Below are positions 7,417-14,825 of a stretch of DNA of 64,000 bases, piece after piece; the first letter of the stretch is position 1; every line of letters starts with the position of its first letter. Source of the stretch: an uncultured Candidatus Peribacteria bacterium. GTDB taxonomy: Bacteria; Patescibacteriota; Gracilibacteria; Peribacterales; Peribacteraceae. The DNA is taken from the NCBI GenBank assembly GCA_964448405.1, contig CAYUVW010000002.1, forward strand, positions 7,745-71,744, read 5' to 3'. The notes under the pieces are model-generated. The model ran no database searches, was not told the origin of the DNA, and worked only from the letters and a program-made list of their open reading frames with translations. A program made the position numbers and the translations under genes.

Positions 7417-10400
7417 TCAGACGATTTTCTCACAACGTGAGTTGATGACTTCGGCGACGATGGACGCAATGATGATCAGCCCTCCTCCGACGAAGAACAG
7501 CACGTTTGTGTTGATGGTGTGACGGAAGAACAACAACTCGAACAAGAACGCGATGAACGGCGCCAAATTCAGCATCATGAACGCCAGCAAGCCGTCGATG
7601 CGCTTGAATGCCTCGAACGTGAGCACCAATCCGACGAGAGTAATAACACCCACGCCGATATTGGTCACCCACTGATTCATGGTCAGATTGAAGGTGATGT
7701 CGAGACCGAAGAAGAGATTGCCACCCAGAATCATCGCAAGCGTAGCGGCTGCGATCCAGACGAAATGATGCGTGGCGAGCGAGATGGTATTGGTGGCCAC
7801 GCCGCTGTATTTCACGTAGTGAATGTTGCTCATCATGAAGGCAACGTCCGAAAACGCGATCATGAGCGCGAACAAGTCGCCAAGCGCGCCTTGAGCCGTA
7901 GTTTGGAAATCGTTGTACACCAGCATGGTTCCACCGAGCGCACTGAGGCCGAACAACATGAAAATCTGCTGAATGCTCTTGGGTGAATTCAGGTACGAAA
8001 TGCGGCGGCGCCAAACCAAGAACGCCAGCAGCAATGCGAATACCGGCGCGTAGCTGAGCACCAAGTTCACGTTGGTGGCGGTGGTGAACAGCAGGCTCTT
8101 GTGCAGGAAGTAGTTGTACGACAAGTTGGCGAAAACGATGATCCAGAAATAGCGATTGTAGGGGGTTTTGTACGCCAGTTTTTGGCCGGATTTGTAGAAC
8201 AAATTCAGGATGAAGATAGCCGCAAAGCCCGATATCGCTCCGGCCACGGCCCAAATATGCACACGCAAGAGCGGACTGAGGGTTTGAATCGACGTGTAGC
8301 GGATCAACACCGGTTCGATGCCCCAAATAAACACCGCGCCGAACCGCAACAGGTACCCCGTGATTTTTTGGCGCCTTGCATTCTTGATGCTCTTAGCTCC
8401 GGCGATTGTAAGTGCGGCGCTCGGCGCACGTCGGGGCTCCAACTCGAACAATGTGCGCACGAATCGGTACCCCAAGAACAGCATGGCGAACGTAAACAGG
8501 AACAACACCATGAGCAGCGGAACTTGGCCGGTAAGCACCGGCAACTTCCACATGACAAGCAGCACGCCGAATACGTTGAGAACGAATCCAAGGCCGAAAA
8601 ACCATTGCTCGCGACGCATGCTCAACACGTAATGCTGCAGCAGGGACAAGAAATAGTAGTTGGCACCCAAAATAGGAATGAGCGGCAACACATGCAGCAA
8701 GAACAGCGGCATGGACGGAACGCCGGCGAACGCCTTGTAGTACTGCGGCAAGAGCAGCACGTAGCCGACCAAAACGCCCAGCGCCACAAGGAACGACAAC
8801 GTCAGACCGGCTCGCTGATGCATGGACAGCATCGTTTGCACTTTGGAAATCCAATCTTGGCGCTCCAAAATGTCGATGAAGTCAGCGAAATGCAGGCGAT
8901 CAAGTGACGCACCGGACAGATAAATTTCGAACGTGTGCGTCGCAGCATCGAAACGAATGACCGTTCCCGTAATGCTCACATCCGCCTCTTGAATCAGCTG
9001 ATTCAGGCGAACTTGCACATCGCGCTGGCGATCGGAAGTACCCGATACGCACAAGCGGAAGTTATAGCCTTTGCGCTGCAACAAGCGAACGAACGGGAAT
9101 CGACGGTGCTCCGGATACAAGTAGAACACAATGTCGCGCGCGCGAAGCACGCCTTCGCCGATCATGGTGATGACATCCTCGAAATCGCGGCGACGGAAGT
9201 GATCTGCAACGTGCTGCTGCTTGGCTTTTGGCAAATCGCGTACAAGACCCTTTTTGTAGAAATCGAGTTCACGCTGCAGCAAATCCATGCCAAGCATGAT
9301 CTTCTCGGAACGGTCACGCTGCTTCAGTACGTCGACGATCATGGAGCGTGCCAATCGTGTCTTCACATATTTGAGCCAATCGAACGTAATCACTTCATGA
9401 TCCGCCATGGTCACGTACACGTCGTCATCGGGCTTCAGAATGTGCGATAGCGCCGCAGGTTGGCCATCGATGCTGATGTGCTCTGCATTGCCGGCTCGTT
9501 CGCGGTACAACGCATAGACGGCATCCAGCGCGGTGGAATCCTTCGGAATGGCAATGCGCTGGCGATCCACGCAGACGGACATTGTTTCCCGCAGAATGTC
9601 CGATTCCAACGCATCCCAGAACTCGCCGCTATTTTCACGTGTCTGCAAATCAATTTCCGCCGAACGCTGCAACCAGGAGAATTTCGGACCGACACCCGCG
9701 CCGCGAAACAAGAATGTGGTTACGCCGAACTGGGCCTGCTCGTGCATTTCCGCAGTGCGCAAACGAATGTCGATCACCACGCCGTCGGGCAGGGTGACGT
9801 GCGTGTGCAAGCTGCGGTAACCGGACTCCGCCGGTACCGCGATATAGTCGCGGAACTTGCCGCTGACCGGGCGATACAGCGTATGAATATGCTTCAGAAG
9901 CTGGTAGCACGCCTCTTCGCTTTTTACGATCACGACTACAGAAAACGCATCGCTGGCAGCCGGTTGCCACATGCGCTCGCGCATACGCTGCAGAAATTTC
10001 AACAAATCGCGCGGCTGCATTTCCAGCATCTCCAGTGCGTTGTGCTCATCTTCTGCTCGCAGTTGACGCTCAATGGATGGAAACAGCAGTTCGCCTTGGG
10101 CGCACTCTGCATCGCGCAGTTTTTTCGCACGCTCACCGTCGTCGTCGAACGCATACGGTACGCAGAAATCGGCAAACGTCTGGCGTACGTCGCGCATGCC
10201 CAAGTGCAATGCCAGCTTGTGATAGACGTTCAGCGTTTCCAGCGCAAAACGCTTGCGACGTTCGGGGCTGGGCAACAAGTCGATGGTGTAAATGTTGTGC
10301 AGGCGGTCGGCCAGCTTGATGATGGCCACCCGGATGTCGCGGCGCATGACGTCGAACAGCTTGCGCAGCGTTTCCGTCTTACGATCCAAGGGCAGATCGT

Positions 10401-10734
10401 GATCCAAATCGGCATTCGTGAATTTGGTGACCCCGTCCACAAGCAGCGCAACGTGCCTGCCAAAGCGACTGGTGATTTCATCTTTCTTGACCGGCGCATC
10501 TTCCAAAACGTCGTGCAACAAGGCTGCAATGACCGTATCGCGGTCGCCATGCCACTGGCCGATGATCTCGGCCACTTCAATGACATGGTTCACGTACGGC
10601 GAACCATCGTGACGCGTTTGTCCGGCATGCGCTTCGCAAGCCAGCTTGTACGCGTCGCGCACATCATGGAGGTGATTCTCGGAAAGGTATCCGAGAATGC
10701 TCTCCAGCCGAGAGAAATCATGAATGGAATGCAC
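7417..10734 (-). CDS. long RelA/SpoT homologue (HD hydrolase, synthetase-like, TGS, ACT-like) fused to a ~14-TM region including a DMT/EamA-like permease
   Basis: Single 1105-codon ORF with a GTG start. HD motifs RHDGSPYVNHVIEVA, HDVLED and IKLADRLHN. Synthetase-like DYIAVPAESGYRSLHTHV and IDIRLRTAEMHEQAQFG. TGS around aa 385-442. From about aa 643 (nt 8808 downward) continuous TM helices run to the C-terminus. Confidence 0.85.
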   Translation of the reverse strand: MHSIHDFSRLESILGYLSENHLHDVRDAYKLACEAHAGQTRHDGSPYVNHVIEVAEIIGQWHGDRDTVIAALLHDVLEDAPVKKDEITSRFGRHVALLVDGVTKFTNADLDHDLPLDRKTETLRKLFDVMRRDIRVAIIKLADRLHNIYTIDLLPSPERRKRFALETLNVYHKLALHLGMRDVRQTFADFCVPYAFDDDGERAKKLRDAECAQGELLFPSIERQLRAEDEHNALEMLEMQPRDLLKFLQRMRERMWQPAASDAFSVVVIVKSEEACYQLLKHIHTLYRPVSGKFRDYIAVPAESGYRSLHTHVTLPDGVVIDIRLRTAEMHEQAQFGVTTFLFRGAGVGPKFSWLQRSAEIDLQTRENSGEFWDALESDILRETMSVCVDRQRIAIPKDSTALDAVYALYRERAGNAEHISIDGQPAALSHILKPDDDVYVTMADHEVITFDWLKYVKTRLARSMIVDVLKQRDRSEKIMLGMDLLQRELDFYKKGLVRDLPKAKQQHVADHFRRRDFEDVITMIGEGVLRARDIVFYLYPEHRRFPFVRLLQRKGYNFRLCVSGTSDRQRDVQVRLNQLIQEADVSITGTVIRFDAATHTFEIYLSGASLDRLHFADFIDILERQDWISKVQTMLSMHQRAGLTLSFLVALGVLVGYVLLLPQYYKAFAGVPSMPLFLLHVLPLIPILGANYYFLSLLQHYVLSMRREQWFFGLGFVLNVFGVLLVMWKLPVLTGQVPLLMVLFLFTFAMLFLGYRFVRTLFELEPRRAPSAALTIAGAKSIKNARRQKITGYLLRFGAVFIWGIEPVLIRYTSIQTLSPLLRVHIWAVAGAISGFAAIFILNLFYKSGQKLAYKTPYNRYFWIIVFANLSYNYFLHKSLLFTTATNVNLVLSYAPVFALLLAFLVWRRRISYLNSPKSIQQIFMLFGLSALGGTMLVYNDFQTTAQGALGDLFALMIAFSDVAFMMSNIHYVKYSGVATNTISLATHHFVWIAAATLAMILGGNLFFGLDITFNLTMNQWVTNIGVGVITLVGLVLTFEAFKRIDGLLAFMMLNLAPFIAFLFELLFFRHTINTNVLFFVGGGLIIIASIVAEVINSRCEKIV

Positions 10735-10834
10735 GGAAGGGCGTTACCTTCGAGTATATACGCCTTTCGTAGGCATGGACCAGCACAAGCACGGCAACTC
10801 ATGGAAATCTGCATCGCAAAAACCCCCGTACACG

Positions 10835-10854
10835 AAAAAAGGGCCCGAAGGCCC
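10835..10854 (-). terminator. intrinsic terminator (GGGCC-TTCG-GGCCC followed by T6 on the minus strand)
   Basis: Plus strand reads AAAAAAGGGCCCGAAGGCCC: a 5-bp GC stem, a tetraloop and a U-run in the minus orientation. Confidence 0.65.
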
Positions 10855-10946
10855 TCTCTTCCTTTTTAAGCTGCGAGGGTCAAATTACTGACCGCAGCCA
10901 CAACCTGGTCCAACCATAATGGGGTGTGGGAAAGAAATGAAGTAAC
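10835..10946 (-). ncRNA. candidate ~110-nt transcript (sRNA or rel leader) bounded by a promoter-like site and a terminator
   Basis: On the minus strand: TTGACG (10977-10982), an 18-nt spacer, TATATT (10953-10958), then three predicted hairpins ending in the terminator at 10835-10854. Contains a 10-codon mini-ORF, MVGPGCGCGQ (10885-10917). Confidence 0.3.
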
Positions 10947-11075
10947 AGACACAATATACTTTAGACCTTAAGCATTCGTCAAGGGTATAGAGAGGAAAAT
11001 GCCAGAAAGTACCTCAAACCTTGTCCTATTGATTCTCTACAGATTGCAAAGAACAAAGATTCTCTCGTAATACGC

Positions 11076-12014
11076 TTAGAGGACCTTCAGTTTTCCCTTG
11101 GCGTCGGTGATCGATTTGTAGCCCTTCTTCTCCAAAACGGCCTTCAGTTCGGACTCTATACGCGCAAAGCAGGCTTCGCCCTCCTCGTAGAACGCCGTAC
11201 CGATCTGCACCGCATCGGCACCGCACAGCAGATACTCGAATGCATCGGTACCCGTACGAATGCCGCCCACGCCAATGACCGCCATTTTGTCTCCGAGCAT
11301 TTGCGAGAACGCACGTACGTTGGCCAATGCGATCGGCTTAATGAAGTCCCCTCCCAGTCCGCCGAAGCCGCCTTTGGGCTTAATGAGCGGTTGTTCGGTT
11401 TCCGGATCGATAATGAGCGTATTGCCGACCGAGTTGATGCAACACACGAACGCGAGCGGGTATTTCTTCAGAATCGCACCGATCTGTTCGGTATGGATGG
11501 GATCGAAGTACGGCGGAAGCTTTACGCCCATCGGCTTCTTGCCGATCTTCATGATGCTCCCCAAGATCTCGTCGGTCTTCTGGAAGTCGTAAGCAATCTG
11601 CGGCTTACCCTTCACGTTGGGGCACGACAAGTTCACTTCGATGATATCCACCTCGCTCTCCTGGAACGCCTTCACCAACATCGGGTAGTCGTCCGGCGAC
11701 AAGCCGGCCACGCTGGCGATGATGGGCTTCTTGGTTTCTTTCTTCAGGCCGGCGGCGAACTTCACGTATTCCAGGTACCCCAGGTTCGGCAGACCCATGC
11801 TGTTAATGGACCCGTACGGCTTCTTCACGAATGCATAGCGCGGCTCCTCGTTGCCATCGCGCGGTAGCAGCGTGCAGGATTTCATGACAACCGCAGCGGC
11901 GCCCGATCGGGCGATGGTCTGCAATTCGTCCCAGGTGACATCCTTGGGGCCAGACGCGTTGAAAACGTAACCGGGGAGTGAGACTCCTCCGATGGTCGTG
12001 TTGAGGGTGGCCAT
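11076..12014 (-). CDS. pyrD: dihydroorotate dehydrogenase, class 1A-like
   Basis: 313 aa from ATG 12014 (MATLNTTIGG). Motifs NASGP, NLSCPNVKGKPQIAYDF and GGIRTGTDAFEYLLCGA. The track ORF's N-terminal extension is rejected. Confidence 0.9.
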   Translation of the reverse strand: MATLNTTIGGVSLPGYVFNASGPKDVTWDELQTIARSGAAAVVMKSCTLLPRDGNEEPRYAFVKKPYGSINSMGLPNLGYLEYVKFAAGLKKETKKPIIASVAGLSPDDYPMLVKAFQESEVDIIEVNLSCPNVKGKPQIAYDFQKTDEILGSIMKIGKKPMGVKLPPYFDPIHTEQIGAILKKYPLAFVCCINSVGNTLIIDPETEQPLIKPKGGFGGLGGDFIKPIALANVRAFSQMLGDKMAVIGVGGIRTGTDAFEYLLCGADAVQIGTAFYEEGEACFARIESELKAVLEKKGYKSITDAKGKLKVL

Positions 12015-12095
12015 ATGGGGCAAGTGTAACATTCCGTGGACAGGCGACAACAAAAATCGACAATGATTGTGTGTGCCAGTAACCTTGCAGGTCAT

Positions 12096-13022
12096 ATGCA
12101 CCTCTTGCGCATGATTGAACGGCGTCCCGGACTGATCTTCTGTCTCGCACTCGTGCTGGGCATCGTAGCCCCGTTGCCATGGAGCATCGGATCGTTGCTG
12201 CAATGGCTGATGGGTTTTCTACTGTTCTTGTCGTTCTTGGGAGTGAATCTGGTCCACGTGCGCTCCGAGCTGAAGCAACCTGTCCGGTTGGCCGTGCAGA
12301 TCCTGCTGCAATTCATCCTGCTGCCACTTGCACTGTTCGCCGTGCTGCGCTCGGCCGGACTACCGACGTATGCCACCGCTGCCATGCTGCTCGCTGCCAT
12401 GCCGGCAGGATTGGGCAGCCCCGTATTCACAGCTATCGCGCGGGGCCGCATGGAGACCAGCGTGGTGTATTCGGTCATCACGCATCTCCTTGTACCGGTC
12501 ACGGTGCCGCTCTTGTTCTGGATCGCAACCAACGTGGCAGTGCAGGTGGACAGCATCGCCATCGCCAAGCAGTTGGCACTTTTGGTAGGCATACCGATGG
12601 TGCTCGCCGCCGTAATGCGGACATACGCCGCCGGAGCGGTCGAGTGTACCCGGTCATTGCGTAAACCGGCTTCCATCTTGGCGTTGGCTGCCGTCGCGTA
12701 CATCGCTATCACACCGCACGCCGGAACCATCCGCAGCGATGTCCTATCTGTCATTCCTTTGCTGGTCGGGCTGTACGTGTTCTATGTCGTCCTATGCCTG
12801 GCCGCATTCGCTTGCACCGTGGGTCGCATGCCGGAAGAGCGTGCGGCTATCATCGTCAGCCGCATCTACATGAACAACGCGCTGGCAATCGTGCTGGCAA
12901 CGAAGTTCTTCAGCAAAGACGTTGCCTTCGCGATGATCCTCGCAGAAATACCGTGGTTCACCACATTCAGCGCGTACCTGTGGTTCCAGAAGCGGTTCAT
13001 GAAGCTGTCGCCTTCGGCATAG
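12096..13022 (+). CDS. bile acid:sodium symporter (BASS/SBF) family transporter
   Basis: About 9-10 TM. LLAAMPAGLGSPVFTAIARGRMETSV resembles the BASS signature region. Start chosen at ATG 12096; 12036 is the alternative. Confidence 0.6.
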   Translation: MHLLRMIERRPGLIFCLALVLGIVAPLPWSIGSLLQWLMGFLLFLSFLGVNLVHVRSELKQPVRLAVQILLQFILLPLALFAVLRSAGLPTYATAAMLLAAMPAGLGSPVFTAIARGRMETSVVYSVITHLLVPVTVPLLFWIATNVAVQVDSIAIAKQLALLVGIPMVLAAVMRTYAAGAVECTRSLRKPASILALAAVAYIAITPHAGTIRSDVLSVIPLLVGLYVFYVVLCLAAFACTVGRMPEERAAIIVSRIYMNNALAIVLATKFFSKDVAFAMILAEIPWFTTFSAYLWFQKRFMKLSPSA

Positions 13023-13026
13023 ATCA

Positions 13027-14673
13027 TCAGGCCCGCTTCACCGCCTCTTTCATCATGGCGGCGAACAACGGATGCGGGCGATGCGGACGGCTCTTGAATT
13101 CGGGGTGGAACTGGCTGCCGACCATGAACGGATGGTCCTTCACTTCCACGATCTCCATGAGTCCGGTCTTCGGCCATTCGCCCGAGAAGATGAGCCCCTT
13201 GTCCTCCAATTGCTTGCGGAACGCGTTGTTGAATTCGTAACGGTGGCGATGGCGCTCCACAATCTCCGGCGTGCCGTAGGCCTTGGCGGCTTTGGTGCCC
13301 GGCTTCAGTTTGCAGCGGTATTCACCCAGGCGCAGCGTGCCTCCTTTCTCGCTGTCTTTGTGTTGATTGGGCAAGAAGTGCACCACGTATTTGTCGCGAC
13401 CGAGCTTTCCTTCTTCATCGAATTCCTCGCTCGTCAGCTTGTTGTCACCCAATGCGGCACGGGCGAACTCAATTGCTAGCAGCTGCGCGCCCAGACACAG
13501 TCCCAGGTACGGGACCTTCTTGGTACGGGCGTAGTTGGCAGCCAGAATCTTGCCTTCAATACCGCGCTTGCCGAACCCGCCCGGCACGATGATGCCGGCG
13601 CATGCCTTCAGGCGCTCCCAAGTGTCGGCGTCTTTCTTCTCCAGCTTCTCGCTGTCGATCCACACGATCTCGGCCTTGCGCTTGTGGAACACCGCCGCCG
13701 ATTTCACGGATTCGATGACGCTCAGATACGCGTCGTCCAAGTGCGTGTACTTGCCGACCAGTGCGATGTGAATGGGCTTCACCGAAGCCTCGTGGCGCTT
13801 GCGGCCCTCTTCCCACTCCGTCATGTCTGGGCGCAGGCGGCCGAGTTTGAGCTTGTCGCCGATGATCTGCGCAATGGCGTATTGCTGGAAGTTGAGCGGC
13901 ACGTCGTAGATGGAGCTGACGGTGAGCGCCGGAATGACGGCCTCGCGGCGCACGTCGCAGAAGCGGCTGATTTTGTCCAAAAGCTCCGTCGGGATTTTGT
14001 AGTCGGCACGCGCAAGGATGACATCCGGCTGCAGGCCGATGCGACGCAGCTCACGCACGGACAACTGCGTGGGCTTAGTCTTCAGCTCCTTTGAACCCTT
14101 CAGGTACGGCAACAACGTCAGATGCACATGGAAAATTTGATCGGGACCCATCTCGGACTTCATTTGGCGAATAGCCTCCAGGAACGGCTCTCCTTCAATG
14201 TCTCCTACCGTGCCGCCGACTTCGACCATCATGATGTCGGTCTTGCTGTCGCGCGCGGCTCCGATGATGGAATCCTTGATGGCGTTGGTGATGTGCGGAA
14301 CAACCTGGATGGTACCGCCGAGAAAGTCGCCTTTGCGCTCGCGGCGCAAAACATCCGTATAAATTTTTCCGGTCGTGACCGTGGACAGCTTGCTCATCGG
14401 CTCGTCGATGAAGCGTTCGTAGTGACCCAAATCCAAATCGGTTTCCGCACCGTCATCGGTAACGAATACCTCTCCGTGCTGAAACGGACTCATGGTTCCG
14501 GGGTCCACGTTCAGGTACGGATCCAGCTTCTGTACGAACACTTTGTAGCCGCACGCCTTCATGATGGCGCCGATGCTCGCGGCGGCAATACCCTTGCCGA
14601 GAGAACTGCAGACACCACCGGTGACAATAATGAATTTGGCGCGTGACTTCGGTGATGTGGATGCTTTTTTCAT
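13027..14673 (-). CDS. pyrG: CTP synthase
   Basis: KFIIVTGGVCSSLGKGI, glutaminase YLGLCLGAQ and ERHRHRYEFN. Start at ATG 14673; the upstream ATG 14727 is possible. Confidence 0.95.
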   Translation of the reverse strand: MKKASTSPKSRAKFIIVTGGVCSSLGKGIAAASIGAIMKACGYKVFVQKLDPYLNVDPGTMSPFQHGEVFVTDDGAETDLDLGHYERFIDEPMSKLSTVTTGKIYTDVLRRERKGDFLGGTIQVVPHITNAIKDSIIGAARDSKTDIMMVEVGGTVGDIEGEPFLEAIRQMKSEMGPDQIFHVHLTLLPYLKGSKELKTKPTQLSVRELRRIGLQPDVILARADYKIPTELLDKISRFCDVRREAVIPALTVSSIYDVPLNFQQYAIAQIIGDKLKLGRLRPDMTEWEEGRKRHEASVKPIHIALVGKYTHLDDAYLSVIESVKSAAVFHKRKAEIVWIDSEKLEKKDADTWERLKACAGIIVPGGFGKRGIEGKILAANYARTKKVPYLGLCLGAQLLAIEFARAALGDNKLTSEEFDEEGKLGRDKYVVHFLPNQHKDSEKGGTLRLGEYRCKLKPGTKAAKAYGTPEIVERHRHRYEFNNAFRKQLEDKGLIFSGEWPKTGLMEIVEVKDHPFMVGSQFHPEFKSRPHRPHPLFAAMMKEAVKRA

Positions 14674-14825
14674 GGGAGAGATACAGCGGAAAGAGGGCAA
14701 TCCTTTCGGGGGAACCCTTCGGCTCATGTCTATTTCACGAGCCCGCCGTGTATTCTACGCAAAACGGGCCGCCGCACAAATGTTTTTTCAGAGAAGTGCA
14801 ACGGCCCGCTGTTTCTTCGGGTCAA

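Follow-up and report, generated by a model that had tools for sequence, protein, structure and literature searches.

A predicted hydrolase-only RelA/SpoT homologue joined to a membrane anchor and a DMT/EamA permease in Candidatus Peribacteria

In textbook accounts, long RelA/SpoT homologue (RSH) enzymes sense amino-acid starvation in association with the ribosome, and all of the long RSH structures solved to date are, to our knowledge, those of soluble proteins. Here we describe a gene from an uncultured Candidatus Peribacteria bacterium (assembly GCA_964448405.1, contig CAYUVW010000002.1) in which a long RSH continues in frame into 14 predicted transmembrane (TM) helices, the last ten of which form a permease of the DMT/EamA type. 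The gene lies on the reverse strand of the 64,000-nucleotide stretch analysed here, which we refer to as the window. That its product is a membrane-embedded RSH with hydrolase activity only is, from its sequence, highly probable. On balance we also favour a fuller reading, in which the protein is a membrane-integrated long RSH of the hydrolase-only type [Hs] and hydrolysis is controlled by the membrane module. The specific coupling of the permease to the hydrolase that this entails is proposed with much less confidence than the membrane-embedded hydrolase itself.

The fusion gene and its cytoplasmic domains

The gene is a single uninterrupted open reading frame (ORF) of 1105 codons, as an earlier note on this DNA had claimed, and starts with GTG. 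The domain order given in that note was likewise recovered by Pfam, hydropathy and AlphaFold2: HD, RelA_SpoT fold, TGS, helical region, ACT, four TM helices, a basic loop and a ten-helix DMT/EamA domain, from the N- to the C-terminus. Pfam finds HD_4 at residues 28–180 (6e-37) and RelA_SpoT (PF04607) at 261–339 (4e-17), with weak matches to TGS at 394–439 (0.013) and to RelA_AH_RIS at 459–544 (1.5e-4). EamA (PF00892) is matched in two stretches (7.8e-7), marginally, with 29.9 bits against a gathering cut-off of 28.2. The NCBIfam model spoT_relA (TIGR00691) spans residues 28–544 with 350 bits, which is under its 499-bit cut-off, and the closest solved relative by sequence is Bacillus subtilis Rel (6yxa; E=2e-72 over residues 13–542). 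From an input of 105 family sequences, AlphaFold2 returned a single confident model of the 1105-residue protein, with a mean predicted local distance difference test (pLDDT) value of 89.7 and a predicted template-modelling score (pTM) of 0.75. Foldseek matches its N-terminal half to full-length SpoT (7qpr, the top hit), Rel and RelA, and superposes it on the N-terminal halves of Rel proteins with template-modelling scores (TM-scores) of 0.83–0.89.

A chain of this kind could be an artefact, produced by a frameshift or by an assembly that joined an RSH gene to a transporter gene. The probability of this is vanishingly small. A search of 5.8 billion proteins returned ~74 full-length homologue clusters of 1074–1130 residues from NCBI, JGI, ENA and Logan assemblies, with 25–91% identity, at least 96% coverage and the same set of Pfam domains. 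A scan of species-representative genomes found the gene uninterrupted in five independent metagenome-assembled genomes of Candidatus Peribacteria/Peribacterales (58–98% identity, the 98% locus being that of CAYWJU01), and an orthologue at 46% identity is situated on a contig of 1.39 Mb, ERZ25039485:contig_1035 (1,385,808 bp). The fusion is thus kept from 98% down to 25% identity. Because the junction between ACT and the first TM helix (TM1), near nucleotide 8800, is continuous in the ~74 homologues and in the five independent assemblies, the fusion is a real gene, and a frameshift or chimeric join at that point is excluded for practical purposes.

Where the sources of the homologues are named, they are Candidatus Peribacteria, Peribacteraceae or Peregrinibacteria, and among the homologues found the family is confined to Candidatus Peribacteria/Peregrinibacteria. 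In automated annotation they appear as “HD domain-containing protein” or “GTP pyrophosphokinase”. In a neighbour-joining tree they form a long-branch clade of their own, apart from betaproteobacterial SpoT-type sequences. All eight orthologous loci have the gene order pyrG-(SBF)-pyrD-gene-AIM24, with AIM24 convergent. Compared with the orthologue in locus L001 (positions 7417–14727 of the window), the fusion protein is 46% identical and the products of the flanking pyrG, pyrD and AIM24 are 74–81% identical; the fusion protein evolves much faster than these neighbours. By domain, mean pairwise identity is highest in HD (66%) and falls to 48% in the synthetase-like and TGS domains. HD is the slowest-evolving domain of the protein, and the TM parts, ACT, TGS and the synthetase-like domain are the fastest.

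The catalytic domains were compared in an alignment of 74 fusion proteins, 16 members of a shorter (~915-residue) fused family, 13 membrane-anchored Rel proteins with four TM helices (4-TM Rel) and 11 soluble proteobacterial enzymes, the last two groups (24 sequences) serving as the canonical reference set. The HD motifs of RSH enzymes (the His/Asp metal site, the ED pair and KLADR-HN) are all present. H36, R41, H50, H74-D75, E78-D79, D133, K140, D143, R144 and N147 are invariant in 74/74 family members, and all of the HD catalytic residues are invariant across the four aligned groups. It is conceivable that the domain does not act on (p)ppGpp but on another substrate, for instance (p)ppApp or, like metazoan MESH1, NADPH, in an organism that makes no (p)ppGpp; the weaker matches in the PDB do include MESH1-NADPH, MESH1-PAPS and a (p)ppApp hydrolase. 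We give this idea very little credence, as the HD domain is far nearer to Rel/SpoT (HD_4 E ~1e-37, and the superposition on Rel noted above) than to MESH1 or Aph1, and Peregrinibacteria and Patescibacteria do have 4-TM Rel proteins that are synthetase-competent.

The synthetase domain presents a different picture. Its fold is modelled by AlphaFold2 with high confidence, and nine canonical residues were followed through the alignment (R240, K242, D262, R267, K302, N304, E322, Q324 and E335 in the numbering of the Peribacteria protein). The protein has Q240, V267, A302, S304, D322, R324 and Q335 at these positions, with D262 and R242 retained; the Asp in place of the catalytic Glu322 is placed by a mapping that is backed by a HMMER alignment to 6yxa. 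At positions 240, 267, 302 and 324 the canonical R, R, K and Q (24/24 each) occur in 0/74 fusion proteins, having given way to Q/F/E/H, S/V/I, S/T/A/P and R, respectively. The canonical N at 304 (24/24) is A or S in the fusion family and persists in 3/74, and the canonical E at 335 (24/24) is mostly M/R/K/Q. Because the HD residues are invariant and the canonical synthetase residues are replaced, the protein is most likely a monofunctional alarmone hydrolase and not a synthetase/hydrolase.

One alternative is that the enzyme is still bifunctional, or that the synthetase domain has acquired a new catalytic or nucleotide-binding role and the substitutions reflect changed substrate use. The RelA_SpoT fold is well recognized and confidently modelled, and in the pyr-locus subclade D262, E/D322, Y306, H310 and R326 are largely retained. 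In the query's subclade D262 is kept in 48/51 proteins and E or D at 322 in 48/51, with Tyr306 and His310 largely kept as well; this tells against a purely hydrolytic protein, and the domain may have residual or altered nucleotide binding. Even so, either version of this alternative is very improbable. Five to six positions that bind ATP or GDP phosphates or take part in catalysis, and that are invariant in all canonical and 4-TM Rel sequences examined, are replaced non-conservatively and variably. The sister subclade (A2) and the ~915-residue family have also lost D262 and E322, and Y306/H310 likewise, and the loss of D262 and E322 there suggests that selection on catalysis has been relaxed. 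A parallel is offered by Acinetobacter baumannii SpoT, which has been shown experimentally to be synthetase-dead and hydrolase-only, with the pseudo-synthetase kept as a structural/allosteric element (PMC9974481). By sequence, the fusion protein agrees with the definition of type [Hs] given in the same study (PMC9974481), being HD-competent and synthetase-incompetent with the pseudo-synthetase domain retained. The family falls outside the proteobacterial SpoT clade, and its likeness to the SpoT[Hs] of Moraxellaceae would be one of analogous function and independent origin.

The losses extend beyond the pseudo-synthetase. The RSH layout had been described as complete in the earlier note, and this is not so: most of the canonical synthetase residues followed, the tRNA-CCA signature of TGS and the zinc finger are gone. 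AlphaFold2 places the TGS beta-grasp at residues 384–443 and the helical region at 460–540. The tRNA-CCA-binding His of TGS (position 410) is Tyr in this protein and is found in 18/74 fusion proteins versus 24/24 canonical sequences, and the FTPKG hairpin is lost in the family. A zinc-finger domain (ZFD) is absent between the helical region and ACT, which are joined directly in profile-profile alignment, and none appears in the AlphaFold2 model; the related 4-TM Rel family lacks ~50 residues that soluble SpoT-type proteins possess, the CC motif among them. Since the TGS His, FTPKG and the ZFD are missing, ribosome and tRNA sensing and activation by deacylated tRNA are unlikely to have been retained. 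The ACT-like domain that had been proposed is indeed there, though Pfam ACT_4 gives no score on this protein. It has a beta-alpha-beta-beta-alpha-beta fold in the AlphaFold2 model, and hhalign aligns the region with 99.6% probability to the C-terminal regions of the 4-TM Rel family (helical region through an ACT_4-positive ACT). In the model, ACT passes straight into a long helix (residues 638–670; TM1) without a flexible linker.

Membrane modules and their relatives

Residues 1–630 contain no hydrophobic segment, and hydropathy shows 13 clear peaks and one weak peak at residues 653–1088. AlphaFold2 has 14 long helices across residues 638–1104, grouped as 4 + 10 and separated by the basic loop RRAPSAALTIAGAKSIKNARRQK (residues 768–790), the C-terminal part of which runs into the first DMT helix. 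Lys and Arg residues number 13 in the predicted cytoplasmic loops and 1 in the outside loops. This distribution agrees with an N-in topology, in which the RSH part is cytoplasmic and the permease has both of its termini on the same side. The “~14-TM domain” of the earlier note is right as to the number of helices and probably wrong as to its being one domain, as the first four helices look like the membrane anchor of a widespread family of Rel proteins from bacteria of the candidate phyla radiation (CPR).

The four-helix module has no Pfam family; a sub-threshold match to 7TMR-DISM_7TM was seen only on the CPR Rel anchors. Aligned to the C-terminal anchor of CPR Rel by hhalign, the module gives 94.8% probability and E=5e-8, colinear over all four helices. 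The control speaks less clearly for our interpretation, in that the CPR anchor aligned to the unrelated TM1–4 of the query's own DMT domain gives 5e-6, i.e., only ~100-fold weaker. From these alignments, homology of the module to the CPR Rel anchor is likely.

The CPR proteins with this anchor form a family of interest in its own right. Synthetase-competent relatives of the fusion protein (P0084, P0224 and >100 others, 769–820 residues) have hydrophobic C-termini, with 3–4 C-terminal TM helices in 13/13 relatives from the first search and 107/107 top hits in a dedicated search. The few with a named source are “RelA/SpoT family protein” entries from Candidatus Peregrinibacteria and Patescibacteria. 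They keep every signature residue of HD, synthetase and TGS, lack the ZFD, and share a conserved LigA-sortase-Rel-YchF locus. From sequence, a membrane-anchored, ZFD-less and apparently bifunctional Rel looks like the usual form among CPR bacteria, and neither the RSH surveys nor full-text literature searches yielded a published description of a membrane-anchored long RSH. The 4-TM Rel proteins resemble the Peribacteria protein in having HD, synthetase, TGS, helical region and ACT, with no ZFD and with four TM helices immediately after ACT, and they are top-scoring against it among complete synthetase-competent long RSHs. They differ in that the synthetase and TGS residues are intact, the chain ends past the fourth helix, and the gene resides in another locus.

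The assignment of the remaining helices to the EamA/DMT type, as made in the earlier note, was upheld. Beyond the marginal Pfam match, a profile of the last ten helices aligns end-to-end with YddG (5i20; positions 13–317, E=3.5e-5), ten helices are modelled, and Foldseek matches this part to YddG (5i20, TM-score 0.78), LicB (7paf, 0.81), the triose-phosphate translocator and nucleotide-sugar transporters with TM-scores of 0.67–0.81 (among the matches are the GDP-mannose transporter, the CMP-sialic acid transporter and SLC35B1 with ADP). No named DMT subfamily was matched. A phmmer search with residues 641–1105 against 1.84 billion representatives returned just 91 proteins at E<=1e-3, of which roughly half have this RSH fusion and ~35 are stand-alone EamA proteins of 300–350 residues with 32–39% identity, which score 33–65 bits to EamA. 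Most of the polar residues conserved in the subfamily are either acidic or neutral (E807, D963, E1041, E1095 and Asn residues). One further protein, P0137 (780 residues), has the same 4+10-TM module after an N-terminus of ~300 residues with weak winged-helix/TrmB/MarR matches. The DMT domain thus represents a narrow subfamily, able to combine with more than one kind of cytoplasmic module, and P0137 fits a role of the 4+10-TM module as a sensor or input module.

Permease fusion is found in a second Peribacteria family as well, which looks independent of the first. Proteins of ~915 residues from Candidatus Peribacteraceae consist of an RSH with a pseudo-synthetase, an ACT-like domain and ten TM helices, without the four-helix module. 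Orthology of the two DMT domains was considered and rejected: they have no pairwise similarity (E=0.19; none by phmmer either) and a profile match at the superfamily level only (E=1.3e-7). The permease accordingly accompanies a degenerate synthetase in at least two forms, and the anchor-only 4-TM Rel keeps a canonical synthetase. The ~915-residue family and the A2 subclade of the longer family (1085–1091 residues) share a locus, UvrA-Metallophos-Redoxin-NUDIX ... IleRS. In one A2 locus (L015) a stand-alone HD_4 protein of 213 residues adjoins the NUDIX gene.

Candidate coupling of permease and hydrolase

In the mechanism that we propose, the HD domain would break down (p)ppGpp, or a near analogue of it, on the inner side of the membrane, and its activity would be set by the membrane part instead of by starved ribosomes. 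The permease and the four-helix module would signal that a small metabolite, imported or exported, is present or in flux, the input being either the ligand or the conformational cycle of the permease. From there the signal would pass to the adjoining ACT/TGS/pseudo-synthetase core and toggle the HD domain on or off, such that alarmone is cleared while the nutrient flows. The metabolite would most likely be an amino-acid-like compound because Peribacteria are auxotrophic for most amino acids; Ca. Peribacter can synthesise nucleotides but only a few of the amino acids, and is considered to rely on supplies from outside (PMC4736985). Synthesis of the alarmone would be left to another enzyme, plausibly the synthetase-competent 4-TM-anchored Rel common in CPR.

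Control of this kind has precedents. The C-terminal domains of long RSHs switch HD on or off in soluble SpoT/Rel, as in A. baumannii SpoT (PMC9974481). In Rhodobacter capsulatus Rel, binding of Val/Ile by ACT controls hydrolysis (PMC6606846), and ACT also mediates control of hydrolysis in Caulobacter crescentus SpoT (PMC6344854). Within the family, coupling is supported by the linker-free passage from ACT into TM1 and by the fusion of two dissimilar DMT domains, each to a pseudo-synthetase RSH.

Several points weigh on the other side. Hydrolase activity, substrate and allosteric link to the permease are all read from sequence and model, and the fusion could reflect co-localisation without allostery. 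A comparison of contigs and assemblies among the fusion family, the ~915-residue family and the 4-TM Rel family, together with tblastx between loci, showed no shared assembly or contig in DNA that covers a sliver of each genome; in the 64-kb window, no second RSH gene was found. The genomic neighbours of the stand-alone DMT relatives, like those of P0137, are uninformative on function or substrate and give no clue to what the DMT domain carries.

A competing explanation is that the chain combines two independent functions, a permease with its own substrate and an ordinary hydrolase that is constitutive or regulated in some other way, with the fusion serving localisation or co-expression. Rel is anchored by four TM helices without a permease throughout CPR, and membrane localisation therefore predates the DMT fusion; in addition, close stand-alone relatives of the DMT domain exist. 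We nevertheless consider independence unlikely, if not negligibly so. RSHs have been fused to two very different DMT domains, with a degenerate synthetase each time, the ACT-TM1 junction is linker-free in the model and unbroken in the homologues, and the fusion has been maintained over the full range of divergence.

Alternatively, the DMT domain may itself carry the alarmone or a related nucleotide, coupling transport with hydrolysis. In one version, a likely episymbiont would take up extracellular or host (p)ppGpp or (p)ppApp for the HD domain to cleave to GDP/GTP and pyrophosphate, for detoxification, eavesdropping or scavenging; in another, the product would be exported. Exported alarmone synthetases exist, hence extracellular alarmones, and their import by neighbouring cells has been proposed (PMC12691689). 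The DMT superfamily has nucleotide-handling carriers, some of which are among the Foldseek matches, and the A2 subclade and the ~915-residue family adjoin a NUDIX hydrolase, in one locus together with a small HD_4 hydrolase. A synthetase was not found in the inspected DNA of these genomes, which amounts to only a sliver of each, so that its absence is not established. Phosphate-binding DMT carriers use clusters of Lys and Arg. Such clusters were not seen here, the conserved polar residues being mostly acidic or neutral, and the best structural and sequence match is YddG, an amino-acid/metabolite exporter, above the nucleotide carriers. On this evidence transport of the alarmone is quite unlikely. 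Much the same doubtful standing is given to the most far-reaching possibility, a single-polypeptide “transceptor” of the stringent response in which the transport cycle gates hydrolysis or, more radically, imported alarmones of a host or neighbour are destroyed by the tethered HD domain.

Genomic neighbourhood and wider context

A strongly conserved element precedes the gene and comprises a promoter, a micro-ORF and an intrinsic terminator (Table 1). Its link to the RSH-permease gene is positional only. The micro-ORF encodes MVGPGCGCGQ in the window and MVGPGCGCGA, MGPGCGCGK, MIGGPGGCSC, MFGGGSCGCGH or MIGGKGCSC in orthologous loci. It has 9–11 codons, ends in a C-[GS]-C pattern, and is overlapped at its stop codon by a covarying hairpin. 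In favour of its translation are changes that are synonymous at third positions and indels that keep the frame. Each pyr-type locus has exactly one peptide of this pattern, and the ~290 kb of DNA scanned contain no other. A Cys/Gly leader-peptide attenuator was not supported, since footprint-masked folding (at the Cys codons or the stop) never displaced the terminator in eight orthologous leaders. Nor did the palindromic spacer of the promoter gain support as the operator of a regulon, as it has no further above-chance occurrence in the window. Rfam gave nothing above noise on the intergenic region.

Two observations concern other genes. The mechanical ORF of pyrD (375 residues from TTG) overlaps the divergent gene of an SBF-family transporter. 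Because DHO_dh begins at residue 67 and the orthologues have 310–313 residues, the true start is probably an ATG near 12014. The isoleucyl-tRNA synthetase (IleRS) encoded in the Peribacteria loci L005, L012, L015 and L016 has 1438–1498 residues, with a His_Phos_1 domain inserted between two tRNA-synt_1 matches.

Table 1. Location of the RSH-permease gene, its domains, the upstream element and related genes
Feature	Sequence	Positions	Strand	Residues	Basis or remark
Whole gene: predicted hydrolase-only long RSH, 4-TM anchor, 10-TM DMT/EamA	window	7417..10734	-	1105 aa	stop codon 7417-7419
HD (p)ppGpp-hydrolase domain (predicted)	window	10195..10653	-	28-180	Pfam, residue conservation
Pseudo-synthetase domain	window	9700..10149	-	196-345	RelA_SpoT fold kept, canonical residues replaced
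TGS beta-grasp domain	window	9400..9585	-	384-445	Pfam (weak), AlphaFold2, alignment
Helical (AH/RIS) region	window	9115..9378	-	453-540	Pfam, profile alignment, model; no zinc-finger domain after it
ACT/RRM-like domain	window	8833..9066	-	557-634	AlphaFold2 fold, hhalign
Four-helix membrane module	window	8440..8823	-	638-765	hydropathy, AlphaFold2, hhalign; no Pfam family
Basic cytoplasmic loop	window	8365..8433	-	768-790	AlphaFold2, loop charges; residues 772-778 low confidence
10-TM DMT/EamA permease domain	window	7420..8388	-	783-1105	Pfam, profile against YddG, Foldseek
Conserved upstream element	window	10835..10982	-		in every pyr-locus orthologue, between pyrD and RSH-permease gene
Sigma-70-like promoter	window	10953-10982	-		TTGACG-18-TATATT, palindromic spacer
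Micro-ORF	window	10885-10917	-		MVGPGCGCGQ
Strong intrinsic terminator	window	10835-10854	-		~100 nt ahead of GTG start
pyrD, mechanical ORF	window	11076-12203	-	375 aa	TTG start
SBF-family transporter gene	window	12036-13022	+		divergent
Orthologous micro-ORF	L001	9804-9833			
Orthologous micro-ORF	L006	7891-7923			
Orthologous micro-ORF	L007	5880-5912			
Orthologous micro-ORF	L008	7843-7875			
Orthologous micro-ORF	L009	7852-7881			
Orthologous micro-ORF	L010	7821-7853			
Orthologous micro-ORF	L011	7866-7901			
4-TM Rel	L003	6001-8370			LigA-sortase-Rel-YchF locus
4-TM Rel	L013	6001-8391			LigA-sortase-Rel-YchF locus
P0137	L019	6001-8343		780 aa	4+10-TM module
~915-residue fusion	L005	8001-10736			
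~915-residue fusion	L012	6001-8748			
Subclade A2 fusion	L015	5001-8276			
Subclade A2 fusion	L016	5001-8252			
IleRS with His_Phos_1	L005	13796-18112			
IleRS with His_Phos_1	L012	from 13716			
IleRS with His_Phos_1	L015	216-4658			
IleRS with His_Phos_1	L016	1-2799			

Among the nearest known systems is SpoT[Hs] of A. baumannii (7QPR; PMC9974481), the top Foldseek match, which is also a long RSH with an intact HD domain, a degenerate pseudo-synthetase and regulatory TGS, helical and ACT-RRM domains; for both, the working model has the C-terminal part controlling the hydrolase. Unlike SpoT[Hs], a soluble protein with a ZFD, the Peribacteria protein lacks the ZFD and continues into 14 TM helices. 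SpoT[Hs] belongs to Gammaproteobacteria and the present protein to CPR, with an independent origin, additional loss of the TGS signature, and no grouping with proteobacterial sequences in the neighbour-joining tree. Bifunctional Rel enzymes (B. subtilis 6YXA, RelSeq 1VJ7, Staphylococcus aureus 7OIW) have the same domain order up to the helical region. In contrast to them, the Peribacteria protein lacks the synthetase residues, the TGS His and the ZFD, is membrane-embedded, and is unlikely to be activated by the ribosome. With the EamA permeases YddG (5I20) and LicB (7PAF) it shares ten TM helices arranged as two EamA repeats, but its DMT domain belongs to a very narrow subfamily and is covalently joined to a signalling enzyme.

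In transceptors or trigger transporters, and in membrane-anchored second-messenger enzymes such as GdpP and CdaA, a membrane transport or sensor module sets the activity of a cytoplasmic domain that makes or breaks a nucleotide messenger. The concept is alike and the protein families are different, and no case came to light with an RSH as the messenger enzyme or a DMT permease as the membrane module. Surveys of the RSH superfamily (PMC3153485; PMC7229694) make no mention of a transmembrane or permease-fused long RSH, and full-text searches on EamA-fused or TM-containing long RSHs and on ppGpp in Patescibacteria/Peribacteria gave nothing relevant, in keeping with the earlier note, which knew of no characterisation of the architecture. 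The parts (RSH hydrolase, pseudo-synthetase, DMT permease) are known, and what is new is their combination together with the loss of the ribosome-sensing elements.

In conclusion, we have described a lineage in which a long RSH appears to have given up its synthetase chemistry, has lost both the tRNA-binding signature and the zinc finger that anchors such enzymes to the ribosome, and is tied, as a predicted hydrolase, to a membrane anchor and a permease. It offers a second, independent case of SpoT-like hydrolase subfunctionalisation, comparable with that of Acinetobacter. If the coupling is true, it would provide a directly testable case of alarmone levels set by transport or membrane sensing, and if the protein were a transceptor, a likely episymbiotic CPR bacterium could read or blunt the starvation signal of another cell. 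The CPR-wide, ZFD-less 4-TM Rel may matter more, as it suggests that the stringent response is organised differently from that of model organisms in a very large and mostly uncultured section of the bacterial tree. The transceptor reading, if true, would together with that family imply that much of bacterial diversity governs its stringent response at the membrane and not at the ribosome.

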